A DNA stretch of 64,000 nt, taken from the IMG/VR virus record IMGVR_UViG_3300027541_000218, positions 9,824 through 73,823 of that record; one strand, 5' to 3'. The stretch is from a virus. A program made the translations under genes and the position numbers. The notes under the pieces were generated by a model that saw only the letters and a list, made by a program, of their open reading frames with translations, did no database searches and was not told the DNA's origin. Below, in pieces: positions 13,067 through 64,000 of the stretch; position 1 is the stretch's first letter; the number at the start of each line of letters is the position of its first letter.

Positions 13067-13293
13067 TTAATTACCTCTCTAGTAACTAGCACAATTGCCC
13101 CTTCCATTTCTAAAGCCTTCTTTACCATTGATACATACTTGACTGCATCTAACTTTTCATCATGAGTCATTCGTATAAATGATCTCTCATCTAATTTTAT
13201 CGTAATGAATGTCTCATTGTCAATAAGACTTACCCCAAAGTTTTTAGGAGCGGGTATAGAATGAAATGCCATACGCATTTTATCTGTATACAT
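13063..13293 (-). CDS. Hypothetical protein
   Basis: Start MYTDKM overlaps the WhiB stop (TAATG). Confidence 0.65.
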   Translation of the reverse strand: MYTDKMRMAFHSIPAPKNFGVSLIDNETFITIKLDERSFIRMTHDEKLDAVKYVSMVKKALEMEGAIVLVTREVIK

Positions 13294-13577
13294 TATTGCT
13301 CCATTGTTAGTGCTTGCCAGGTATAAGACCAATCTTTTTTAGTCTTATGATTATTAAATTCTTTAGAGATTTCTCCGCCCTCTAAATATATTCCACCCCA
13401 AATTCCCCACTCTTTGCCAGATACGCCTACTGCAAAACATTTATTAGCAACTGGACATGTTCTACAAAGAGAGTCTACAAATTCTCTTGTTTCAGTTTGT
13501 TCTTCGTAAATATCAAAGAATACATTAGTATCGGATCCTAGACAAAGAGCATCGTCTTTCCACAGATGCTGTTTCAT
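13293..13577 (-). CDS. whiB: WhiB-family transcription factor
   Basis: ALC...LCRTCPVANKC and EWGIWGG. Confidence 0.9.
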   Translation of the reverse strand: MKQHLWKDDALCLGSDTNVFFDIYEEQTETREFVDSLCRTCPVANKCFAVGVSGKEWGIWGGIYLEGGEISKEFNNHKTKKDWSYTWQALTMEQ

Positions 13578-14727: not shown

Positions 14728-15132
14728 TTACCCCCTTTTTGGACTAAATGCGCTACCTTCCCAGACTTTCTGAGACTTTTTCTTTTCACGCTCTACAATT
14801 GCACGAGACCAAGAGAATCCTGCGTCTCCACCCCATGCATCCCACATAATTCTTCCATTAGATGGATTACTATTATTATAGAAGTCTTTTCCTTTTTTGT
14901 CAACTTCATGACGAGAAAAGAAAGAATACATGCGCTTAACTGTATCTAATGATAATGCACGACCAGCGACAATATCTGTTGCACGACCCCAACCTACTGG
15001 AGTTCCCGCACCTGTTGCTTTACCTTCTTCTTTCCAGCGCAAAGCACGACGTGCTGCTGCTTTCATACCAGAAGTTGGTGTGTATGTTTCTGCTTTGTAC
15101 ATATCTGAAGGCTGAATAATTTTACTTTTCAT
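14728..15132 (-). CDS. Putative head-associated protein; candidate capsid cargo
   Basis: GTPVGWGRA...VKRMYSFFSRHE...WGGDAG domain; ends KVWEGSAF; GGAGAG SD supports the start MKSKII. Confidence 0.65.
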   Translation of the reverse strand: MKSKIIQPSDMYKAETYTPTSGMKAAARRALRWKEEGKATGAGTPVGWGRATDIVAGRALSLDTVKRMYSFFSRHEVDKKGKDFYNNSNPSNGRIMWDAWGGDAGFSWSRAIVEREKKKSQKVWEGSAFSPKRG

Positions 15133-15262
15133 TTTTCTTATACTCTCCATATTTACCAAGAATTGATTTAACTGTTCCATTCTTATTAAGTCTAACAATC
15201 ATGCCATTTTTAATTTGAATGGGGTTAAAAGGATGTTTTGTTTTATATTTGCCAGAAGACAT
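15122..15262 (-). CDS. 46-aa basic microprotein (not in ORF track)
   Basis: MSSGKYKTKHPFNPIQIKNGMIVRLNKNGTVKSILGKYGEYKKNEK*; TAATG overlap. Confidence 0.65.
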   Translation of the reverse strand: MSSGKYKTKHPFNPIQIKNGMIVRLNKNGTVKSILGKYGEYKKNEK

Positions 15263-16479
15263 TATTTTACAAATGGATTTAGATCAAAAATTGATCCAGA
15301 CCAATCTCCCATACCCTTTGTTGCTTTATTACGCCAATCTTCAGGAAGCATATCCATTGCATTTAGTGCACGTGCACGACGAATAATATGTGCTCTTGCA
15401 GCACCATAATCTTTTGCACGTCCAACAGAACGAATTGCATTCATAAGATCTGCACGATTTCCAATTGGGAAAGAACCATCAGGCATTGCTGTTCCAGCCT
15501 CTGCCATTCTTTCACGTTGTCCTCCAGAGAATTCTCTCTTGTCCATGTCAACTCCTTTGTATGTACCACCACGACGTTTGTATTCTTGAACTACCCAGCC
15601 ATTTGCAACTGCAGAAGGATAAACGTCAAATTTATCTTTTGCTGCTTGCACAACTGAAGCATATAGTCTTGGATTTGCTGGTGTTGAACCACTTCTGCGT
15701 GGCTTAATCATATCTTCATAGTTAGGTTTAGCAGCCAATTCTATATCTGCACTATCTTGTCTATCTAATTCAGCATCTTGATATGGTGCATTAGCCATCT
15801 GCGCTTTATTTACAGGCACACAGTTAGGAACCATTCTTCCATCTTTTTCTTTCATGCCTCTTTGCTCATATCCTACCCAACAGGCTTTTGTCATATTATC
15901 CCATTTATCTTCATCTTCATTGTCGGATTGATAAGATTTGCCAATTGAATTATCATAAGCATCCATTGAAGACTGCATTGTTTCTTCTGGAGAAGAACTT
16001 GAAGACATTTCTTCAACAACGTCTCTTGATACCATTAATGATTCAATTTTTACTACTTCAGATGCTCTGTGTGCATGAATATCTTCAGTTGCTTCCCAAG
16101 CACCGTCTTCTTCTTCAAAAATACGAATAGATAATACTGGATCTTCTGGCGTTGCTTCCATTGCATATTCTGAACCTGTTAGTCCATAAGTACCTTCAGT
16201 CATTACAAACTCTACTTGACCAACTTTAATTTCATCTTCTTCGCAAAGAAACATAACATAATCACCTTCAGTGACCATTGCTTTTTCTACACCATTTATA
16301 AATTTTTTAGCCGTACTTGCCCAAATAGCACGAGCCTGTGCTTGAGCCTTAGCCTTAGTTGGATGGCATCCATGTACTGTGCCGTCAGCACTTACAGTTG
16401 GAAATCCTGCACAACCATAAGATCCTTTTTTACCAGCACGGTACCCGCCTGCTGGCTTTCCTTTACCACCTACTGGCAT
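15262..16479 (-). CDS. Modular polyprotein-like protein; candidate capsid cargo
   Basis: Short modules (CWVGY...VPNCVP, YPSAVANGW...YKRRGG, MPDGSFPI) separated by xxK-A/S sites; ends DWSGSIF. Confidence 0.7.
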   Translation of the reverse strand: MPVGGKGKPAGGYRAGKKGSYGCAGFPTVSADGTVHGCHPTKAKAQAQARAIWASTAKKFINGVEKAMVTEGDYVMFLCEEDEIKVGQVEFVMTEGTYGLTGSEYAMEATPEDPVLSIRIFEEEDGAWEATEDIHAHRASEVVKIESLMVSRDVVEEMSSSSSPEETMQSSMDAYDNSIGKSYQSDNEDEDKWDNMTKACWVGYEQRGMKEKDGRMVPNCVPVNKAQMANAPYQDAELDRQDSADIELAAKPNYEDMIKPRRSGSTPANPRLYASVVQAAKDKFDVYPSAVANGWVVQEYKRRGGTYKGVDMDKREFSGGQRERMAEAGTAMPDGSFPIGNRADLMNAIRSVGRAKDYGAARAHIIRRARALNAMDMLPEDWRNKATKGMGDWSGSIFDLNPFVK

Positions 16480-16508: not shown

Positions 16509-16892
16509 TCAGAAGTTTCGCCTCTTCATGAGGCGCTTCATTTCATCCAAAGCCCAGCGGTGATCCTGAGATAATTTAGCCACTTCATTTTTATCAAATG
16601 CTTTATCTGTTAGGGTAACTATAGGCTCATCAGATAACAAATCTACATTTACAAACCCTTTTTCCCACATAGTCATTATCTCAGAATTAACGTGGTTTAA
16701 ATGCTCCCTATATAATTCTGGCATTATGTCCTTTATTTTAGGAGTAAATCCATACAGAAGTTCTCCTGTTGTTGAATCTACCCCAACAACTTCAAGAGCC
16801 TTATTTAAGATAAGATAGTCTATAGCATTTTGATCTTCTGGTATCATATTTTTCCCATCAGGATTGAATATCAGTTTCAGTATTTTTTTCAT
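16509..16892 (-). CDS. Hypothetical protein
   Basis: In-operon ORF. Confidence 0.65.
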   Translation of the reverse strand: MKKILKLIFNPDGKNMIPEDQNAIDYLILNKALEVVGVDSTTGELLYGFTPKIKDIMPELYREHLNHVNSEIMTMWEKGFVNVDLLSDEPIVTLTDKAFDKNEVAKLSQDHRWALDEMKRLMKRRNF

Positions 16893-17142
16893 AATTAATT
16901 AGATCCACCAACTGCTCTCTTGTTTTTCCACCTATTTCTCTTTTTATTTCTATTCCATCATCAAATAAAATAAAAGTTGGAACAGATTTAATGTTAAAAT
17001 TTGCTACAAGTTCTGGATTATAATCTACATCTATAATTTGAAAACCAGCAACTGTTTGATCACGATTTAACTCTTCAACAATTGGTCTTGTACGCTTGCA
17101 TGGTTGGCACCATTCGGCGGTAAAATAATAAATCGTTTTCAT
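16858..17142 (-). CDS. Thioredoxin
   Basis: WCQPC and VPT. Confidence 0.92.
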   Translation of the reverse strand: MKTIYYFTAEWCQPCKRTRPIVEELNRDQTVAGFQIIDVDYNPELVANFNIKSVPTFILFDDGIEIKREIGGKTREQLVDLINYEKNTETDIQS

Positions 17143-17546
17143 TTTCCAGACTTTGCTCTAGCCTTTTTAAGTACATCAAAGTCTTTAATTTTTGTTTCGC
17201 CAAGATATCCCCAAGCATATCCATCATTAATCATCTTATTATTTAATGATTCAGACTCTCCGTTTACATATACCCAGCCAAGAATACGACCATACTTTTC
17301 AGATGAGTCCATCTTTTCTGTACGAATAACTACAGACTTTGCATCTTTTAAATGCTTCTTTAAATATTCTTTTGCTTCTAAACCTAAAGCCTTCTCTGCT
17401 TTGTCTGTTGTACGAGATTCTGGCGTATCAATACCAGCAAGTCTTACACGAGACGCAAACATAATATCAAACCCTAAATCAATAATAACGTCAATGGTGT
17501 CTCCATCAACAACATTTTTTACTTCTCTTACAAAATACTCATACAT
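17139..17546 (-). CDS. Thermonuclease (SNase family)
   Basis: VVDGDT, VRLAGIDTPE, KYGRILG. Confidence 0.92.
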   Translation of the reverse strand: MYEYFVREVKNVVDGDTIDVIIDLGFDIMFASRVRLAGIDTPESRTTDKAEKALGLEAKEYLKKHLKDAKSVVIRTEKMDSSEKYGRILGWVYVNGESESLNNKMINDGYAWGYLGETKIKDFDVLKKARAKSGK

Positions 17547-58311: not shown

Positions 58312-59303
58312 TATAAAACTCCTGGAGTGCCAAAGTTTGTTATGTATTTCTGTAGAATTTTATCTACTAATATATTTCCAGTGCCTTCTAACGCAGACTT
58401 ATCAATTTGAATTTTATATTGATCAGTAGAGTAGTTAGTAATATACCTCTTATGGTATTCCATCTTACCGCACTTGATATCTTCAATTAACATTTTTGTA
58501 GCATCTTGAATTTCATATGGAACAACCTTATAGCCAGTTTCTAAATGAAATAGATAATTAAATGTTACTGGAAATGTTACTCCAGGTGCGACTGCTAAAG
58601 TTACTGTGCTATCTTCTGTATCATAAAGATAGATTGAGTCTGATTCTCCAAGTGGAACTCCTTTTGGTGTTCCTATTTGACGAATATATGATTGATCGCC
58701 CATCTGGGTCCACTCTTTAAGAATGGATGTTTTATCTTTGCTAAGTAGATAAATCCATTGGCTATCGTTTTGTGTTTGTGGGGTAGCATCATAATCCCAA
58801 ACAAGTTGATTATTTTCGTATGCTTTTAAAATTGTGTATGTTCTGTCCCAAATAGGCATGTAATCTGATCCATTACCATTTGTTTCATACCAAGAGCGCT
58901 CATAATAAAATCCGCCAGGTACTATAGAGTCAATAATTGCTCTTGCTATATTTTCCCACTCTGTATAGTTTGCAATATCTGTTGCTGTTCCATCTGCATT
59001 GGTCTGAGCCAATCTAATTGGATTAACATATGGTCTAGCAATATCTAGATTGTCTTCTACTACAATTTCTGCCTGTTCCCCATCAACAATAGAATAAATT
59101 GCTAAATAGTATGACTCATCATACGAGTTAAACATATTAGAAAGAGTATAACTAATTTGAGCATTGGCATCTGATGTTATATTTTCTTCTACTTCATTAA
59201 CATTTCTTGTACCCTGATTAATAATTAATAGATACTCTGTATTAGCATCTGGCACATCATATGTGATGGTCAGTGGGTATGGGGGTAAACGTAGAATCTG
59301 CAT
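58311..59303 (-). CDS. Head-tail adaptor
   Basis: GYKVVPYEIQDATKML, TGNILVDKILQKY. Confidence 0.65.
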   Translation of the reverse strand: MQILRLPPYPLTITYDVPDANTEYLLIINQGTRNVNEVEENITSDANAQISYTLSNMFNSYDESYYLAIYSIVDGEQAEIVVEDNLDIARPYVNPIRLAQTNADGTATDIANYTEWENIARAIIDSIVPGGFYYERSWYETNGNGSDYMPIWDRTYTILKAYENNQLVWDYDATPQTQNDSQWIYLLSKDKTSILKEWTQMGDQSYIRQIGTPKGVPLGESDSIYLYDTEDSTVTLAVAPGVTFPVTFNYLFHLETGYKVVPYEIQDATKMLIEDIKCGKMEYHKRYITNYSTDQYKIQIDKSALEGTGNILVDKILQKYITNFGTPGVL

Positions 59304-59659
59304 TAGATCTTACCGTAGTGTTTGGCTACCTCTGCTGGAGTTGCTTCACGAACAGATTTCTTGGTAAGCCACTTTACGGATGCCTCCTTTGTGACAATAT
59401 TATATCCTTTTTCAAGGCTACCCACACCGTTCCAATAAATGTTTCCTTTTGAGAAAAGTGCTACCTTTTCTTTTGGAGTCATTGCTGCTGCTTTTCTTTC
59501 TTCTTCATCTTGTCTAGGAACAAAAGGAAGAATTGCCTCTAACAATTCCTGCTTTGTAGTTGCTCCAAGAGTATCAATTTTGTTCTTTTTTGCATATGAC
59601 TTTAATTCAAGAACAGTTTTCTTTGAAAATTCTTCTACTACTTCTTTTGTTGTTGCCAT
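59303..59659 (-). CDS. Head-associated protein with Rho-N/HeH-like domain
   Basis: TVLELKSYAKKNKI...TKQELLEAI. Confidence 0.6.
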   Translation of the reverse strand: MATTKEVVEEFSKKTVLELKSYAKKNKIDTLGATTKQELLEAILPFVPRQDEEERKAAAMTPKEKVALFSKGNIYWNGVGSLEKGYNIVTKEASVKWLTKKSVREATPAEVAKHYGKI

Positions 59660-59689: not shown

Positions 59690-59914
59690 CTATTTTCTAC
59701 TTGCTCTTAATGTTTGTGGTTTTCTTATTCCTGCTGGAGTACCAGATATTGTTATATTTTCACCAAATATAGGTGTTGGAATATTACCTAATACATTTGT
59801 TTGCATAATCATACCTTGTGGACCCATTACCATTACCCCACCAACTCCACCTACTGCAATTGCTCCATCGCCATCGTGTTGATGTGAGACTGTTGGATTT
59901 CCTGGATATGACAT
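59690..59914 (-). CDS. Stand-alone paralog of the major capsid N-terminal arm
   Basis: YPGNPTVSHQHDGDGA versus MCP YPGSPTVSHNHQGDGA. Confidence 0.8.
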   Translation of the reverse strand: MSYPGNPTVSHQHDGDGAIAVGGVGGVMVMGPQGMIMQTNVLGNIPTPIFGENITISGTPAGIRKPQTLRASRK

Positions 59915-59985: not shown

Positions 59986-61125
59986 TTATGCGGTTGGATC
60001 AACTGCTGCATCTGCGTAAGCAACTGCATCAAGTTCTTCCCATTGAATACCAAAGCGTACAAAGACGGTATACTCAATTGTATCCTTCTTTGGCTTGTAT
60101 TCACGGTTTACAGTGATATCACGCTGGAAACCCCATACACGGTTTGCAGGGAATGTCAAGTCGACATAATCTGCTGGGTAGTAAGGAACTTCCATAACAT
60201 CCACTCCGAGAACACGAGTTGTACGTGCTCCACCGAATGTCTGTCCCATACCATCAAGATAGTCTTGACGGTTACGCTCTGTACCACCAGTACGTGGAGC
60301 AAATGCTTCAGCAATAGCGTCAGCGAGTGTTCCGTTGTTCTTAACAATACCTGCGAATGCATCAGTACCTGCGTAGAACTTTAGGTTCTGCTTTAGGGCA
60401 CGATACTTACGTGGCATTGCAAGGATAATGTCCTGCATTACCTCTGTAGTCCAGTTGTCATCTGTAACTGTAACGGCTGCTTCGTGAGCATCTCCGTCAT
60501 TTTCAACTTTGTGAACGAAACCTTCCATGATTGAAAGGAAGTCGCCAGTTGAACCATCACCGTTGATAGCGAGGTCTTCGATATCGTTAGCGAATGCGTT
60601 TGTCATCAAGCGAACTAGATGATCTTCAAGCGCACCACCTTCAATATTGTCTTCAAGTGCTTCAGTTGAAACTTCCCAATCAAGACGAATCTTCTTGGTT
60701 GTGAGTTCTACCTTAGTAAATGTAGCACCAGCGTTTGTATAATTGTTGTTTGCCTGTGCAGCAGCACGAATTACACGTTCACCCACGTTAACTTTTTCAA
60801 GTTCCATGGTGTTTGCTCGCATAGTAACTCTACGACCATCTTTGGCGAGAACTGTTGCATCCCACACATAGTCGATGAAGCGGCGAGCCTGCTCTGGAAG
60901 GAGAATACCTCCTGGTGTACCAGTTGGATTAACTGCGTTTGGACCAGAAGTTACACCCCATTCAGGAGTAGCAATGTTACCCAAGTTTGCACCAATATCA
61001 GATGTGGATGGGTTGGTTGCTGTTGCACCACCGATATCACCTGAAGCGAAAGCACCATCACCTTGGTGGTTGTGCGATACTGTTGGAGAACCTGGATAGT
61101 TCTTTACGATTTCTTGTTCCGACAT
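59986..61125 (-). CDS. Major capsid protein (HK97 fold)
   Basis: GGILLPEQARRFID, EALEDNIEG, EDLAINGD; AGGAGG SD; follows protease-scaffold. Confidence 0.92.
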   Translation of the reverse strand: MSEQEIVKNYPGSPTVSHNHQGDGAFASGDIGGATATNPSTSDIGANLGNIATPEWGVTSGPNAVNPTGTPGGILLPEQARRFIDYVWDATVLAKDGRRVTMRANTMELEKVNVGERVIRAAAQANNNYTNAGATFTKVELTTKKIRLDWEVSTEALEDNIEGGALEDHLVRLMTNAFANDIEDLAINGDGSTGDFLSIMEGFVHKVENDGDAHEAAVTVTDDNWTTEVMQDIILAMPRKYRALKQNLKFYAGTDAFAGIVKNNGTLADAIAEAFAPRTGGTERNRQDYLDGMGQTFGGARTTRVLGVDVMEVPYYPADYVDLTFPANRVWGFQRDITVNREYKPKKDTIEYTVFVRFGIQWEELDAVAYADAAVDPTA

Positions 61126-61152
61126 ATTGTTCACCTCCTAAGTGAATATACC

Positions 61153-62475
61153 TTAACTAAATAGGTCGGCATTTGTGAGGAAACGACCGCCCCATAGGGA
61201 TTTTTGAACCTGACGTACAGGTTCCTGCACGATCTCGCCTAGATCGCCAGACTTGCGGAAAGCAGTATCTTTTTCTACAAGATCTACTCGCTTTCCAAAC
61301 TCATTAAAAGTGCTCTTTACTTGGCTTACCTCACTTGCTACAGACTTTACTTCGCCTGTAACTGTTTCAAGAGACTTTGTAATTGCTTCAACATTGGCTT
61401 GCATAGCCTTTACTGTATCAGCAAGATTGCTCAAGGCATTAGTTAGAGAGTTATTAATTTCTTCCACAGACTTTGCAACTTCTGCTGTTGCATTAACAAC
61501 TGCTTCTACTGCATCATCTGCTTCTTCAGCAACAGGAGCGTCTGCAACAACTGCATCTGCTTCTGCCACTGCCTCTGCTACTGGCTCTTCCGCTGCTGCT
61601 TCTTCAGCAACAACTTCAGTAGCCTCTGCTACAGCATTATCTGCTGGAGCCTCGGGAGCAACCTCAACATTTTCAACTTTTGTTGCATCTGCGACAACTA
61701 GTGTCTCTTCTGCAATAACAGTTTCTTCTGTCATAGGATTTTCCTCCTTTGTAATCTTAATTGTCCTAATGCCTTTTGCACTATCAACTAAGAACTTTAC
61801 GGTATCAATATCATTCTGATCTTCAACAAAGCCAATGTTTTTCATTGACCCGCTGCATGTTGGACATGATTCATCAGATTCTTTAGAGAGTCTTACAATA
61901 TCATCAGTGTTGCACCAATAAACTGTATCAACTACAGTCTTTGCAAGGAATCCACCAATTTGTCCCTTTTCAATAGAAACAACATTAGCAAATTGATTTG
62001 CAGGATTATCTACAAGAGATAATTCATGCAATTCATATTCCTTAACAATTCTTATTGCCTTTTCTAGTTCTTCATCGTAAGAGTCCATTGACTTTGTAAT
62101 ATTCCCTCCGATAGAAAAACCAGTTAGTGTGCCATCAAGAACTTTTTCCCAAGTATCTTGTGCACCCTTTGAAACATATGCAGAAACATAAACACCGCTA
62201 TAAAAGTTTTTTGACTTTGGATCAAAATAACGATCTTCCTTAAATGAAACTACTTTGCCTACTGCTGTAGGTTGATGCATTTCACGTAAGTTACCACGGA
62301 ATTTCTTAAATGCTTCAAGGCTGGCTTCTGTTGTAACAATGTCGTTTTGCTTATCAATATTATCTAGTGTCGCAAAGCCAGAAACAATTCTGCGTTCTTT
62401 GTCGACTTTTCCGATAGGCATCGAAAAGCGAACATTGTCGCCATCAGTAGTCCAGTGTGCTTTATTTATAGTCAT
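61153..62475 (-). CDS. Prohead protease fused to acidic/coiled-coil scaffold
   Basis: REMH, GFSIGG, ELSLVDNPAN; Glu/Ala-rich C-half. Confidence 0.9.
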   Translation of the reverse strand: MTINKAHWTTDGDNVRFSMPIGKVDKERRIVSGFATLDNIDKQNDIVTTEASLEAFKKFRGNLREMHQPTAVGKVVSFKEDRYFDPKSKNFYSGVYVSAYVSKGAQDTWEKVLDGTLTGFSIGGNITKSMDSYDEELEKAIRIVKEYELHELSLVDNPANQFANVVSIEKGQIGGFLAKTVVDTVYWCNTDDIVRLSKESDESCPTCSGSMKNIGFVEDQNDIDTVKFLVDSAKGIRTIKITKEENPMTEETVIAEETLVVADATKVENVEVAPEAPADNAVAEATEVVAEEAAAEEPVAEAVAEADAVVADAPVAEEADDAVEAVVNATAEVAKSVEEINNSLTNALSNLADTVKAMQANVEAITKSLETVTGEVKSVASEVSQVKSTFNEFGKRVDLVEKDTAFRKSGDLGEIVQEPVRQVQKSLWGGRFLTNADLFS

Positions 62476-62516: not shown

Positions 62517-64000
62517 TTATTGAGACGCTCTACCTTCACCTTGTGGATTTCTTCCATCAATGGTTGCAGGAGAGTCAGATACGTTATTTGCTCTTTCGGC
62601 ATCTCTTTCACGGTTACCCGCTAAATTTGCACGAGCATCTGTTGCTTGTCTTGGAGTCATAGTAAATGGAGTGCTACCGTCACCGTCTGGTCTTGGTGGC
62701 AAATCTAACATTTCACGAGCCTCGTCAGGCGTAATAACCTGAGTCTTGACATATCTTTCAATAATTTGAGACTGAGCAATTTCATCCGTTAAGGTCATTT
62801 CATTAAACTTTAACTGAAGAATATCTGTTTTTTCTTTAATAATCTTATTGACCATTTTTTCAAGTTGTGCTTGTGCTGGTCTAGCAACCTGTTCTTTAAA
62901 TGTTCTATCTTGAGACATTGCTGCAGCAATAGCAGCAGAATCTGAACCTCCAAGTTTAGAAATAGGAACTTGGTGTGCTACAAGAATATCATCACGGTTT
63001 TGTTTACGATATTTTTCAAACGATGCTTCTTGTACAGAAGTCTCAACTGGATCCATCTTAAACTCAACCTTATTGTTGTCAGTATCTCCAGGAAGTGGGA
63101 TATATAGGGTTCTATGGTTCTGACCCTTTAGACCTGTCTGCAAGAATCTAAACATCTTATCTTCTGCGTCTGCAGAAAGTTTGGCACCTTTGACCGTAAT
63201 GATATAACGTGGTGCACCCTTGTTTTGGAAATAATCAATATTATATTGAGCAGCCAAAGAGTCTCCAATAAGAGAAGAAACTGCAGAAATAATATCTGGA
63301 ATTCCATAATAGGTGTTTAAAGGAGAATACTCTTTGATATGAATAATTTCATTTGGACGTGTATCTGTAGTCATTGGGTTTGGATTAGTTGCTCCAAAAT
63401 TACGGAAATAAACAACCTTCTGTCCAATGATCTGAACAAATCCATCACGAAGACGGCGTACACGAATAGTTGTAGATGGAATATGTCCTACATATCCAAT
63501 CTCTCCAGATACTGTTCTTCCTATTTCTAAAAAGCCATTACCTGTAGCCTGAAGATCTGTATAAATTTTTTCCATTGTATTTGTAAATGAATCATCATCA
63601 TTAAGTGACTCTAGCCACTCACGAATTTCTAGTTTCATTCTTTCAATACGACGACGTGCTCTATCTACCGCTCCTGAATCACCATTAGTTTCAAAGCGAA
63701 GCATTGTGCGGTCTGTAATATCAAAACGATATCCAAGACCAACAACATTTTCTACTTTAGCATCAATGGCTGCGTGATTGGCAAAAGATGTATCATAATA
63801 ACTTGCTAACTCATACATGTTGTATGGTGGTGTAATTACATCAAATAGTCCATAACCATTTCGGTATACCGTTCCAGGATTAATCTGCTTAGAACCACTA
63901 CCGTCTTGTCCCATTGGAATAGCGTTAGCATTTTCCAAATAACGGGCTGTTGGTTCTACCGCATTGTATCCGTAAACCTTAGAAACATTTCTTGTAGTTC
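62517..64000 (-). CDS. Portal protein (5' end beyond window)
   Basis: TGNGFLE, YYGIPD, FQNKGAP, ITPDEAREML; frame open to the window edge. Confidence 0.92.
   Translation of the reverse strand, partial: TTRNVSKVYGYNAVEPTARYLENANAIPMGQDGSGSKQINPGTVYRNGYGLFDVITPPYNMYELASYYDTSFANHAAIDAKVENVVGLGYRFDITDRTMLRFETNGDSGAVDRARRRIERMKLEIREWLESLNDDDSFTNTMEKIYTDLQATGNGFLEIGRTVSGEIGYVGHIPSTTIRVRRLRDGFVQIIGQKVVYFRNFGATNPNPMTTDTRPNEIIHIKEYSPLNTYYGIPDIISAVSSLIGDSLAAQYNIDYFQNKGAPRYIITVKGAKLSADAEDKMFRFLQTGLKGQNHRTLYIPLPGDTDNNKVEFKMDPVETSVQEASFEKYRKQNRDDILVAHQVPISKLGGSDSAAIAAAMSQDRTFKEQVARPAQAQLEKMVNKIIKEKTDILQLKFNEMTLTDEIAQSQIIERYVKTQVITPDEAREMLDLPPRPDGDGSTPFTMTPRQATDARANLAGNRERDAERANNVSDSPATIDGRNPQGEGRASQ

Follow-up and report, generated by a model that had tools for sequence, protein, structure and literature searches.

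Several systems have been described in which a short peptide at one end of a protein brings it into a phage head. The internal proteins of bacteriophage T4 are loaded by a removable tag, and the C-terminal propeptide of the SPN3US protease gp245 is thought to target this protease into the prohead (PMC7411985). The CpmB protein of the satellite SaPI1 and the scaffold of phage 80alpha share a C-terminal motif (RIIK) and one site on the capsid protein, which was demonstrated by cryo-electron microscopy and tail swaps (PMC5644958). Here we describe a comparable arrangement predicted in the IMG/VR virus record IMGVR_UViG_3300027541_000218, a 73,823-bp contig (36% G+C), the larger part of which is the 64,000-nucleotide stretch analysed in this work (hereafter the window). 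Two proteins encoded on its minus strand, one of 405 amino acids (aa) (15262..16479) and one of 134 aa (14728..15132), hereafter called the cargo proteins, are built of globular modules preceded by lysine-ending motifs and terminate in a peptide similar to the C-terminus of the protease-scaffold fusion of the same phage (61153..62475, minus strand). Judging from the sequences and from analogy with the systems above, it seems on balance probable that this peptide is a C-terminal capsid-loading tag which is derived from the scaffold anchor and accompanied by protease trimming at the lysine sites. No paper was found, in a literature search that was incomplete, on separately encoded phage proteins sharing the C-terminal peptide of a scaffold or a protease.

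With T4 (cargo proteins IPI-III and Alt, protease gp21) the window would have in common that a short removable peptide loads unrelated and distantly encoded proteins into the prohead, which is predicted here by analogy. The cut rule is of the hydrophobic-x-charged type in both cases, namely L/I-x-E for the T4 protease and [ILMV]-x-K for the sites in the window. The differences are that the T4 tag, an N-terminal propeptide about 10-20 residues long, binds to a scaffold core that is a separate structure, whereas the window tag is C-terminal and copies the scaffold's own tail, that the T4-type gp21 protease has its counterpart in an S78 (HK97-type) protease fused to the scaffold, with junctions ending in K and not in E, and that the system in the window is small, with only two cargo genes. 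T4 cargo stays with the DNA (PMC7411985, PMC9024508), a fate that is only predicted for the window proteins. As with CpmB, each cargo family is a protein unrelated to the scaffold which carries a copy of its C-terminal motif; CpmB, however, is a dimeric alternative scaffold of a satellite and alters the capsid size, whereas in the window the motif is carried by chains of globular modules that belong to the phage itself and have predicted release cuts. A C-terminal protease segment has also been proposed to direct prohead entry of HK97 gp4 and SPN3US gp245 (PMC7411985), but it is known only on the protease itself and not on separate cargo.

An earlier note on this DNA had likened the peptide to the loading signal of encapsulins. 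The likeness holds for the mechanism, in which a short C-terminal cargo peptide on a disordered tail binds the interior of an HK97-fold shell (in the window this binding is predicted), and does not extend to the peptides or to the gene neighborhood. No sequence relation was established between the window tag and the encapsulin loading peptides, whose consensus is rich in Gly, Ser and Leu and is not known to include the W-x-G-x-F core. Moreover, an encapsulin cargo gene lies beside the shell gene, with no protease trimming, portal or DNA involved, whereas the window belongs to a true virus and has its cargo genes 44.7 kb away from the capsid gene. Polyvalent proteins and MuF polymorphic toxins are likewise shuffled chains of unrelated domains predicted to be packaged and injected, and the 134-aa domain occurs in such proteins (PMC5512222, PMC5576092). 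The window proteins differ from them: a MuF or portal carrier is missing, as are enzymatic and toxin domains and a zincin peptidase, so that the 16-residue tag would replace the carrier.

C-terminal tags of the scaffold and the cargo families

The protease-scaffold ends in VQK-SLWGGRF-LTNADLFS (61156..61209, minus strand), which is its presumed capsid anchor, the 405-aa protein in ATK-GMGDWSGSIFDLNPFVK (15265..15324, minus strand) and the 134-aa protein in KSQK-VWEGSAF-SPKRG (14731..14778, minus strand), the three C-termini given in the earlier note thus being confirmed by translation. The common core is K-x(1-4)-W-x-G-x(1-2)-F, and in all three proteins the tag falls inside the last 17 or so residues. 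The distance from the cargo genes to the head operon, put at about 45 kb in the same note, was measured as 44.7 kb in the window and is 47-49 kb in complete relatives. The whole contig has 361 open reading frames (ORFs) of at least 40 aa, and W.G.{1,2}F occurs within the last 30 residues in none but these three. When five relatives (G001-G005, one of them complete, one nearly complete and three partial) were scanned, the motif was found in the same three families only, with the exception of junk ORFs, namely two short ones and a 90-aa ORF on the opposite strand caught by a looser F/L pattern. The enrichment against shuffled termini proposed as a check in the earlier note was indeed observed, as 154 motif tails were present among 2358 distinct ORFs from all the DNA analysed to that point, where about 4 were expected from the shuffles or about 3 from the internal rate of the motif; all but one of the 154 belong to the three families.

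Conservation of the motif in orthologs, on which the earlier note had made its reading depend, was followed through IMG/VR loci (236 for the 405-aa protein and 483 for the protease-scaffold), and the tag was present in every cargo ortholog read. Residues W393, G395, F398 and K405 of the 405-aa protein are invariant in 24 aligned orthologs, including those without the preceding module, the orthologs of the 134-aa protein keep the tag as K-[VIAT]-W-x-G-[ST]-[AP]-F, and QKSLWGGRFL of the scaffold is unchanged in all of the 76 relatives, the residues immediately upstream of it being variable. All three families retain a lysine in front of the tag. In many orthologs of the large protein the last helical module is missing and the sequence stops directly after the DUF5872 module, with the tag retained: these shorter proteins finish as ...RGGTYK-x(4-7)-TKSIWGGAF..., with the variants ...TKSIWGGAFDP... 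and ...TKSIWDGSFNP.... Distant relatives with other module orders (P0078, P0081, P0119) are still terminated by the tag. Since the tag stays terminal while the preceding domains are exchanged, it behaves as a signal and not as a part of a domain. In AlphaFold2 models, the tails of both cargo proteins are disordered and follow the last folded module, with a predicted local distance difference test (pLDDT) score below 60 in both and below 50 in the 405-aa protein. The anchor itself is also recognizable in Streptomyces phage Wofford (about 50% identity) as WGGHFL (...SKWGGHFL...).

The likeness between the cargo tags and the scaffold tail was scored by ungapped BLOSUM62 comparison of the scaffold 10-mer with the last 35 residues of each ORF, the control being 2731 other ORF tails (mean 2.7, standard deviation 4.2, maximum 19). 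The cargo tails of the short variant (NKSIWGGSLL, TKSIWGGAFN) score 27-37, and the closest pair is KSIWGGAF of the cargo orthologs and KSLWGGRF of the scaffold. The three families are thus joined via intermediates, because the short-variant orthologs outscore all the controls, and at the sequence level the scaffold-cargo link is unambiguous only by way of these orthologs.

A separate observation concerns relatives of the 134-aa domain in which the five-helix domain is succeeded by additional modules (P0070, P0085, P0089, P0129, P0177); there, an internal K-ALFADFG or K-ILFEGFG stretch is located at the tag position, and a tag at the terminus is lacking. To judge from its sequence, this stretch may be a degenerate internal tag or else an unrelated linker.

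Modular cargo proteins and their lysine junctions

The 405-aa protein matches Pfam family DUF5872 with 25 bits, below the cut-off of this family, and its AlphaFold2 model consists of folded pieces separated by low-confidence linkers. The pieces are a Cys/His beta-hairpin with a helix (aa 11-61), a beta-barrel resembling Tudor/SH3 domains (aa 67-150), a CWxGY..VPNCVP knuckle (aa 199-223), weakly predicted helices of the sub-threshold DUF5872-like module (about aa 251-311) and a three-helix module with the signature FPIxNxxDLxNAIxSVGRA (aa 330-388), followed by the disordered tail with the tag (aa 389-405). Modules have been gained and lost in many combinations among 55 distinct orthologs, and altogether six types of module vary in presence and order among the relatives, which is shuffling of the kind seen in polyvalent proteins. 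Both cargo proteins are modelled as globular modules and linkers with no coiled coil, and neither of them showed a MuF, portal, toxin, enzyme or known anti-defence family in Pfam and PHROG profile searches. Some orthologs of the large protein (L002, L006, L011, L016, L078) have an optional Cys-rich module of the EYEGCGCPTCKELNV-C-x2-CPVC or CGCPTC...CxxC type, which is probably a zinc ribbon; it is flanked by hydrophobic-x-K sites and is absent from the window protein.

The 134-aa protein (phrog_2859 type, E 4.5e-33) comprises one five-helix domain, modelled confidently by AlphaFold2 (pLDDT 87), and a disordered tail with the tag. Fold searches of solved structures with this model gave no match (Foldseek at best E 1.4, VIA-align at best Z 4.9), and the ESM Atlas search returned unnamed viral clusters only. 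A TTG start at 15198, giving a protein of 156 aa, was judged less likely than the ATG at 15132, the latter being preferred because it has GGAGAG 10 nucleotides upstream and fits the ortholog lengths of 122-144 aa.

The hydrophobic-x-K sites listed in the earlier note for the two cargo proteins, the scaffold and the capsid N-terminus are all present in the translations. An [I/L/M/V]-x-K motif stands in front of each module in all the architectures seen, with the next residue being mostly A, S, E, K or R (for example, IGK/S, VEK/A, MDK/E, MSK/S, MTK/A, MDK/A, MDK/R and ITK/A). The 405-aa protein has seven such sites, six of which lie in or beside the low-confidence segments that make up 44% of the protein, and five coincide exactly with module borders in the AlphaFold2 model. 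The N-terminus of the capsid protein reads MNNMSEQEIVK/NYPG, so that residues 1-11 are a candidate propeptide ending in I-V-K; K11 is kept in relatives as IVK, LIK (LIK/A), ITK (ITK/S) or IEK (IEK/A), and a 74-aa paralog of the capsid protein starts exactly at the equivalent of capsid residue 12. Orthologs of the 134-aa protein start with M-A-D/E-T-Y..., at the point where the window protein would start after MYK/A. The capsid protein of HK97 is cut at K103/S104, within an unstructured stretch, by a protease of the same type (PMC10275583), and by this analogy the junction lysines fit lysine-specific trimming, the fit being no proof of it. Occurrences of [ILMV]-x-K in the protease-scaffold were not counted as evidence of cleavage; they are uninformative, as this protein is lysine-rich and has many such sites in its folded domain.

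Other phages have these modules fused to head proteins. The 134-aa domain has 3716 representative relatives, many of them within MuF, portal or protease fusions. In Roseobacter phage CRP-811 it forms the N-terminus of an 816-aa protein annotated as the major capsid protein and encoded right after the portal gene, which at a guess is a protease-scaffold-capsid fusion. In Vibrio phage 1.089.O it is the N-terminus of a 331-aa protein encoded just before the scaffold and capsid genes, the C-terminal half of which looks, by eye, like an XkdF-type protease, and in Actinomycetia phage DSL-LC01 it lies within an annotated 'capsid maturation protease'. The domain is also found inside MuF, portal-MuF and MuF-ADP-ribosyltransferase proteins, the MuF, portal and enzymatic domains being joined to it in distant relatives only. 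As for the 405-aa protein, its residues 257-382 (modules 4-5) match the C-terminal end of the GX15bay portal, and residues 304-382 (module 5) match the final part of a 1633-aa 'capsid maturation protease' of Gordonia phage DalanDe. Portal, MuF, protease and scaffold proteins are all situated inside the procapsid. The fusion of the modules to portal, MuF, protease or capsid proteins elsewhere therefore places them in the head interior, and since the window proteins have no carrier domain, the tag is the only candidate for the carrier role. The head-module proteins of S-CBS4, Vibrio phage 1.089.O, DSL-LC01 and CRP-811 share no C-terminal peptide.

Between the two cargo genes there is a 46-aa ORF (15122..15262, minus strand) without a tag, overlapping the stop of one cargo gene and the start of the other. 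It has tblastn matches in 75 related loci, with an identity of 73-83% in the five best matches shown. Reading from 16892 down to 14557, the genes for p127, the large cargo, p46, the small cargo and p55 seem to make up a cassette that is conserved in this order. In one related locus (L021:3683-4915, plus strand), a homolog of the upstream 127-aa gene (16509-16892 in the window) is fused in frame to the Tudor-like module via an IGK junction to give 410 aa, a sequencing error being possible; the 127-aa protein may belong to the same pool of modules.

Head module and source phage

The genes of the head module follow the order portal, protease-scaffold, capsid protein, all on the minus strand. The portal gene (62517..63998; Phage_portal E 2.6e-30) may have its start past the end of the contig, since its open frame reaches within two bases of the window end. 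The 440-aa protease-scaffold fusion (Peptidase_S78 and S78_2; phrog_9427 head maturation protease, E 2.6e-121) consists of an S78-type protease domain, a Cys4 insertion, an acidic linker, a coiled coil (about 311-393) and the C-terminal anchor. It thus combines the features of HK97-type systems, i.e. an S78 protease domain, a coiled-coil scaffold region and a gene located between those of the portal and the capsid protein. The insertion has four cysteines (C-x(17)-C-x2-C type; weak DUF7129 match) and the linker following it is rich in Ala, Glu and Val, the two occupying residues about 187-207 and 245-320. The major capsid protein (59986..61134; Phage_capsid; phrog_1623) has the HK97 fold. Sequence searches of the PDB with the protease-scaffold and the capsid protein returned coiled-coil noise only.

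Directly downstream of the capsid gene lies the 74-aa ORF mentioned above (59690-59914, minus strand), a paralog of capsid residues 12-84 (45% identity, E 2e-17) with matches in 65 related loci. These capsid residues are rich in Gly, Ser, Thr and Pro and connect the candidate propeptide to the HK97 fold. The paralog may serve as a decoration protein, mimic the N-arm or be a substrate for glycosylation. Another protein of the head module, 118 aa in length (59303-59659, minus strand), has an N-terminal Rho_N/SAP-like domain (E 2.9e-05, just under the Pfam cut-off).

There is no terminal repeat on the 73,823-bp contig, which is considered a fragment because the complete relatives have a length of 104-110 kb and direct terminal repeats. 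A phage of roughly 105-110 kb of the freshwater Actinobacteria type is the best explanation for the source of the contig. A gene for a small Cys-rich WhiB-like regulator (13293-13577, minus strand) suggests an actinobacterial host; thioredoxin-like and nuclease-like ORFs are located near it (16858-17546). The nearest cultured head genes belong to Streptomyces phages of the Wofford type. Both near and distant DNA searches of cultured phages revealed no close relative, and the sole match was a 70-base stretch to DSL-LC01.

Proposed capsid loading and the alternatives

In the proposed mechanism, the last 16 or so residues of the scaffold (K-S-L-W-G-G-R-F-L...) would anchor the fusion protein on the inner side of the procapsid, by analogy with other scaffolds and proteases, and the cargo tail would dock at the scaffold's site during procapsid assembly in the way suggested by 80alpha/CpmB and SPN3US. 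The docked cargo proteins would become enclosed like the internal proteins of T4. The S78 protease would then cut after K in [I/L/M/V]-x-K at each module junction and just before the tag, and the same enzyme would also cut the N-terminal propeptide of the capsid protein. As a result, single modules of 5-12 kDa would be freed and the anchor peptide lost, and the modules would remain with the DNA and probably pass into the next host. A similar cargo-loading scheme was put forward in the earlier note; its foundations, i.e. a conserved, portable and scaffold-like tag, module chains, hydrophobic-x-K junctions and, in other phages, head-protein fusions, are now visible in the data, while prohead entry, cuts by the protease and an effector role stay at the level of prediction.

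Several results weigh against this mechanism. Within the window, the scaffold and cargo tails match at about five positions, and the 405-aa protein scores only 18 because of a three-residue insertion, with the 134-aa family at 12-16, all these values being below the control maximum of 19. A profile built from the cargo tails alone gives the scaffold tail about 4 bits (E about 8), which is the sixth place among the 2731 non-cargo tails. As the anchor does not vary in the 76 relatives, no signal of co-variation between the anchor and the tag is possible. Some relatives of the 134-aa domain have further modules downstream and no terminal tag (P0070, P0085, P0089), and the whole genome of Wofford contains no extra gene with the tag despite the conserved anchor. 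The motif [IMVL]-x-K is frequent inside the folded, lysine-rich protease domain as well, so the motif alone does not mark cleavage. Promoter and terminator scans around the cargo genes did not rise above shuffled sequences and give no expression timing, and the clade has no cultured member, its relatives being uncultured freshwater phages.

Of the other explanations, the one to be considered first is that the proteins are loaded as proposed but act as assembly helpers, in other words as an additional core or scaffold, which, like the scaffold itself, would be cut up and expelled or degraded before DNA packaging, with no delivery to the next host. T4 core proteins are degraded after assembly, and a helper role would agree with the scaffold's tail and the lysine sites being held in common, as well as with the lack of enzyme or known anti-defence domains found in the cargo proteins. 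We nevertheless regard it as unlikely, because the modules are predicted to be compact folded domains and not coiled coils, and because their free shuffling and loss among close relatives would be unusual for essential assembly parts. In addition, the 134-aa domain is a component of MuF-toxin and portal fusions, for which packaging and injection have been proposed (PMC5576092, PMC5512222).

It is also conceivable that the peptide is functional but is not a capsid address, being instead a docking site for the protease only, a stability or degradation signal, or a binding site for a partner unrelated to heads. The tail is short and disordered, like many linear motifs; yet, apart from the cargo proteins, the genome encodes the peptide only in the protease-scaffold, and there it stands in the place where scaffolds and proteases have their capsid-binding element (PMC5644958, PMC7411985). 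Taken together with the association of the modules with heads, by fusion, in many other phages, this makes such a role quite improbable. Finally, a chance resemblance of short sequences, with the cargo tails conserved for internal reasons, would agree with the five or so matching residues in the window and with the non-significant profile score, but it is hardly credible given the scores of 27-37 for the short-variant orthologs against a control maximum of 19 and the persistence of a terminal tag in orthologs that have lost a domain and in proteins with unrelated orders of modules.

Capsid loading by a scaffold-derived tag thus being the preferred explanation, the chances appear about even for the wider proposal, namely that a tailed phage with a protease of the HK97 type uses a portable loading peptide at the C-terminus, having re-used the scaffold anchor as an address for separately encoded, shuffled modules that are released by lysine-specific cuts. 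To our knowledge, mimicry of a scaffold C-terminus has so far been seen only in the size-redirecting scaffold of a satellite and in engineered P22 or encapsulin systems. If the proposal is true, this would be natural cargo loading by such mimicry and a viral counterpart of encapsulin cargo loading, and the tag, about 16 residues long and carrying its own release site, would offer a practical means of bringing foreign proteins into capsids of the HK97 type. The five-helix domain of the 134-aa protein is of interest in itself as a confidently modelled fold with thousands of relatives and no solved structural analogue. The tag would represent a third route into the capsid for one pool of domains, beside fusion to MuF or portal proteins and fusion to the protease or capsid protein, and it would provide a simple sequence rule for the capsid contents of a widespread group of freshwater actinophages.

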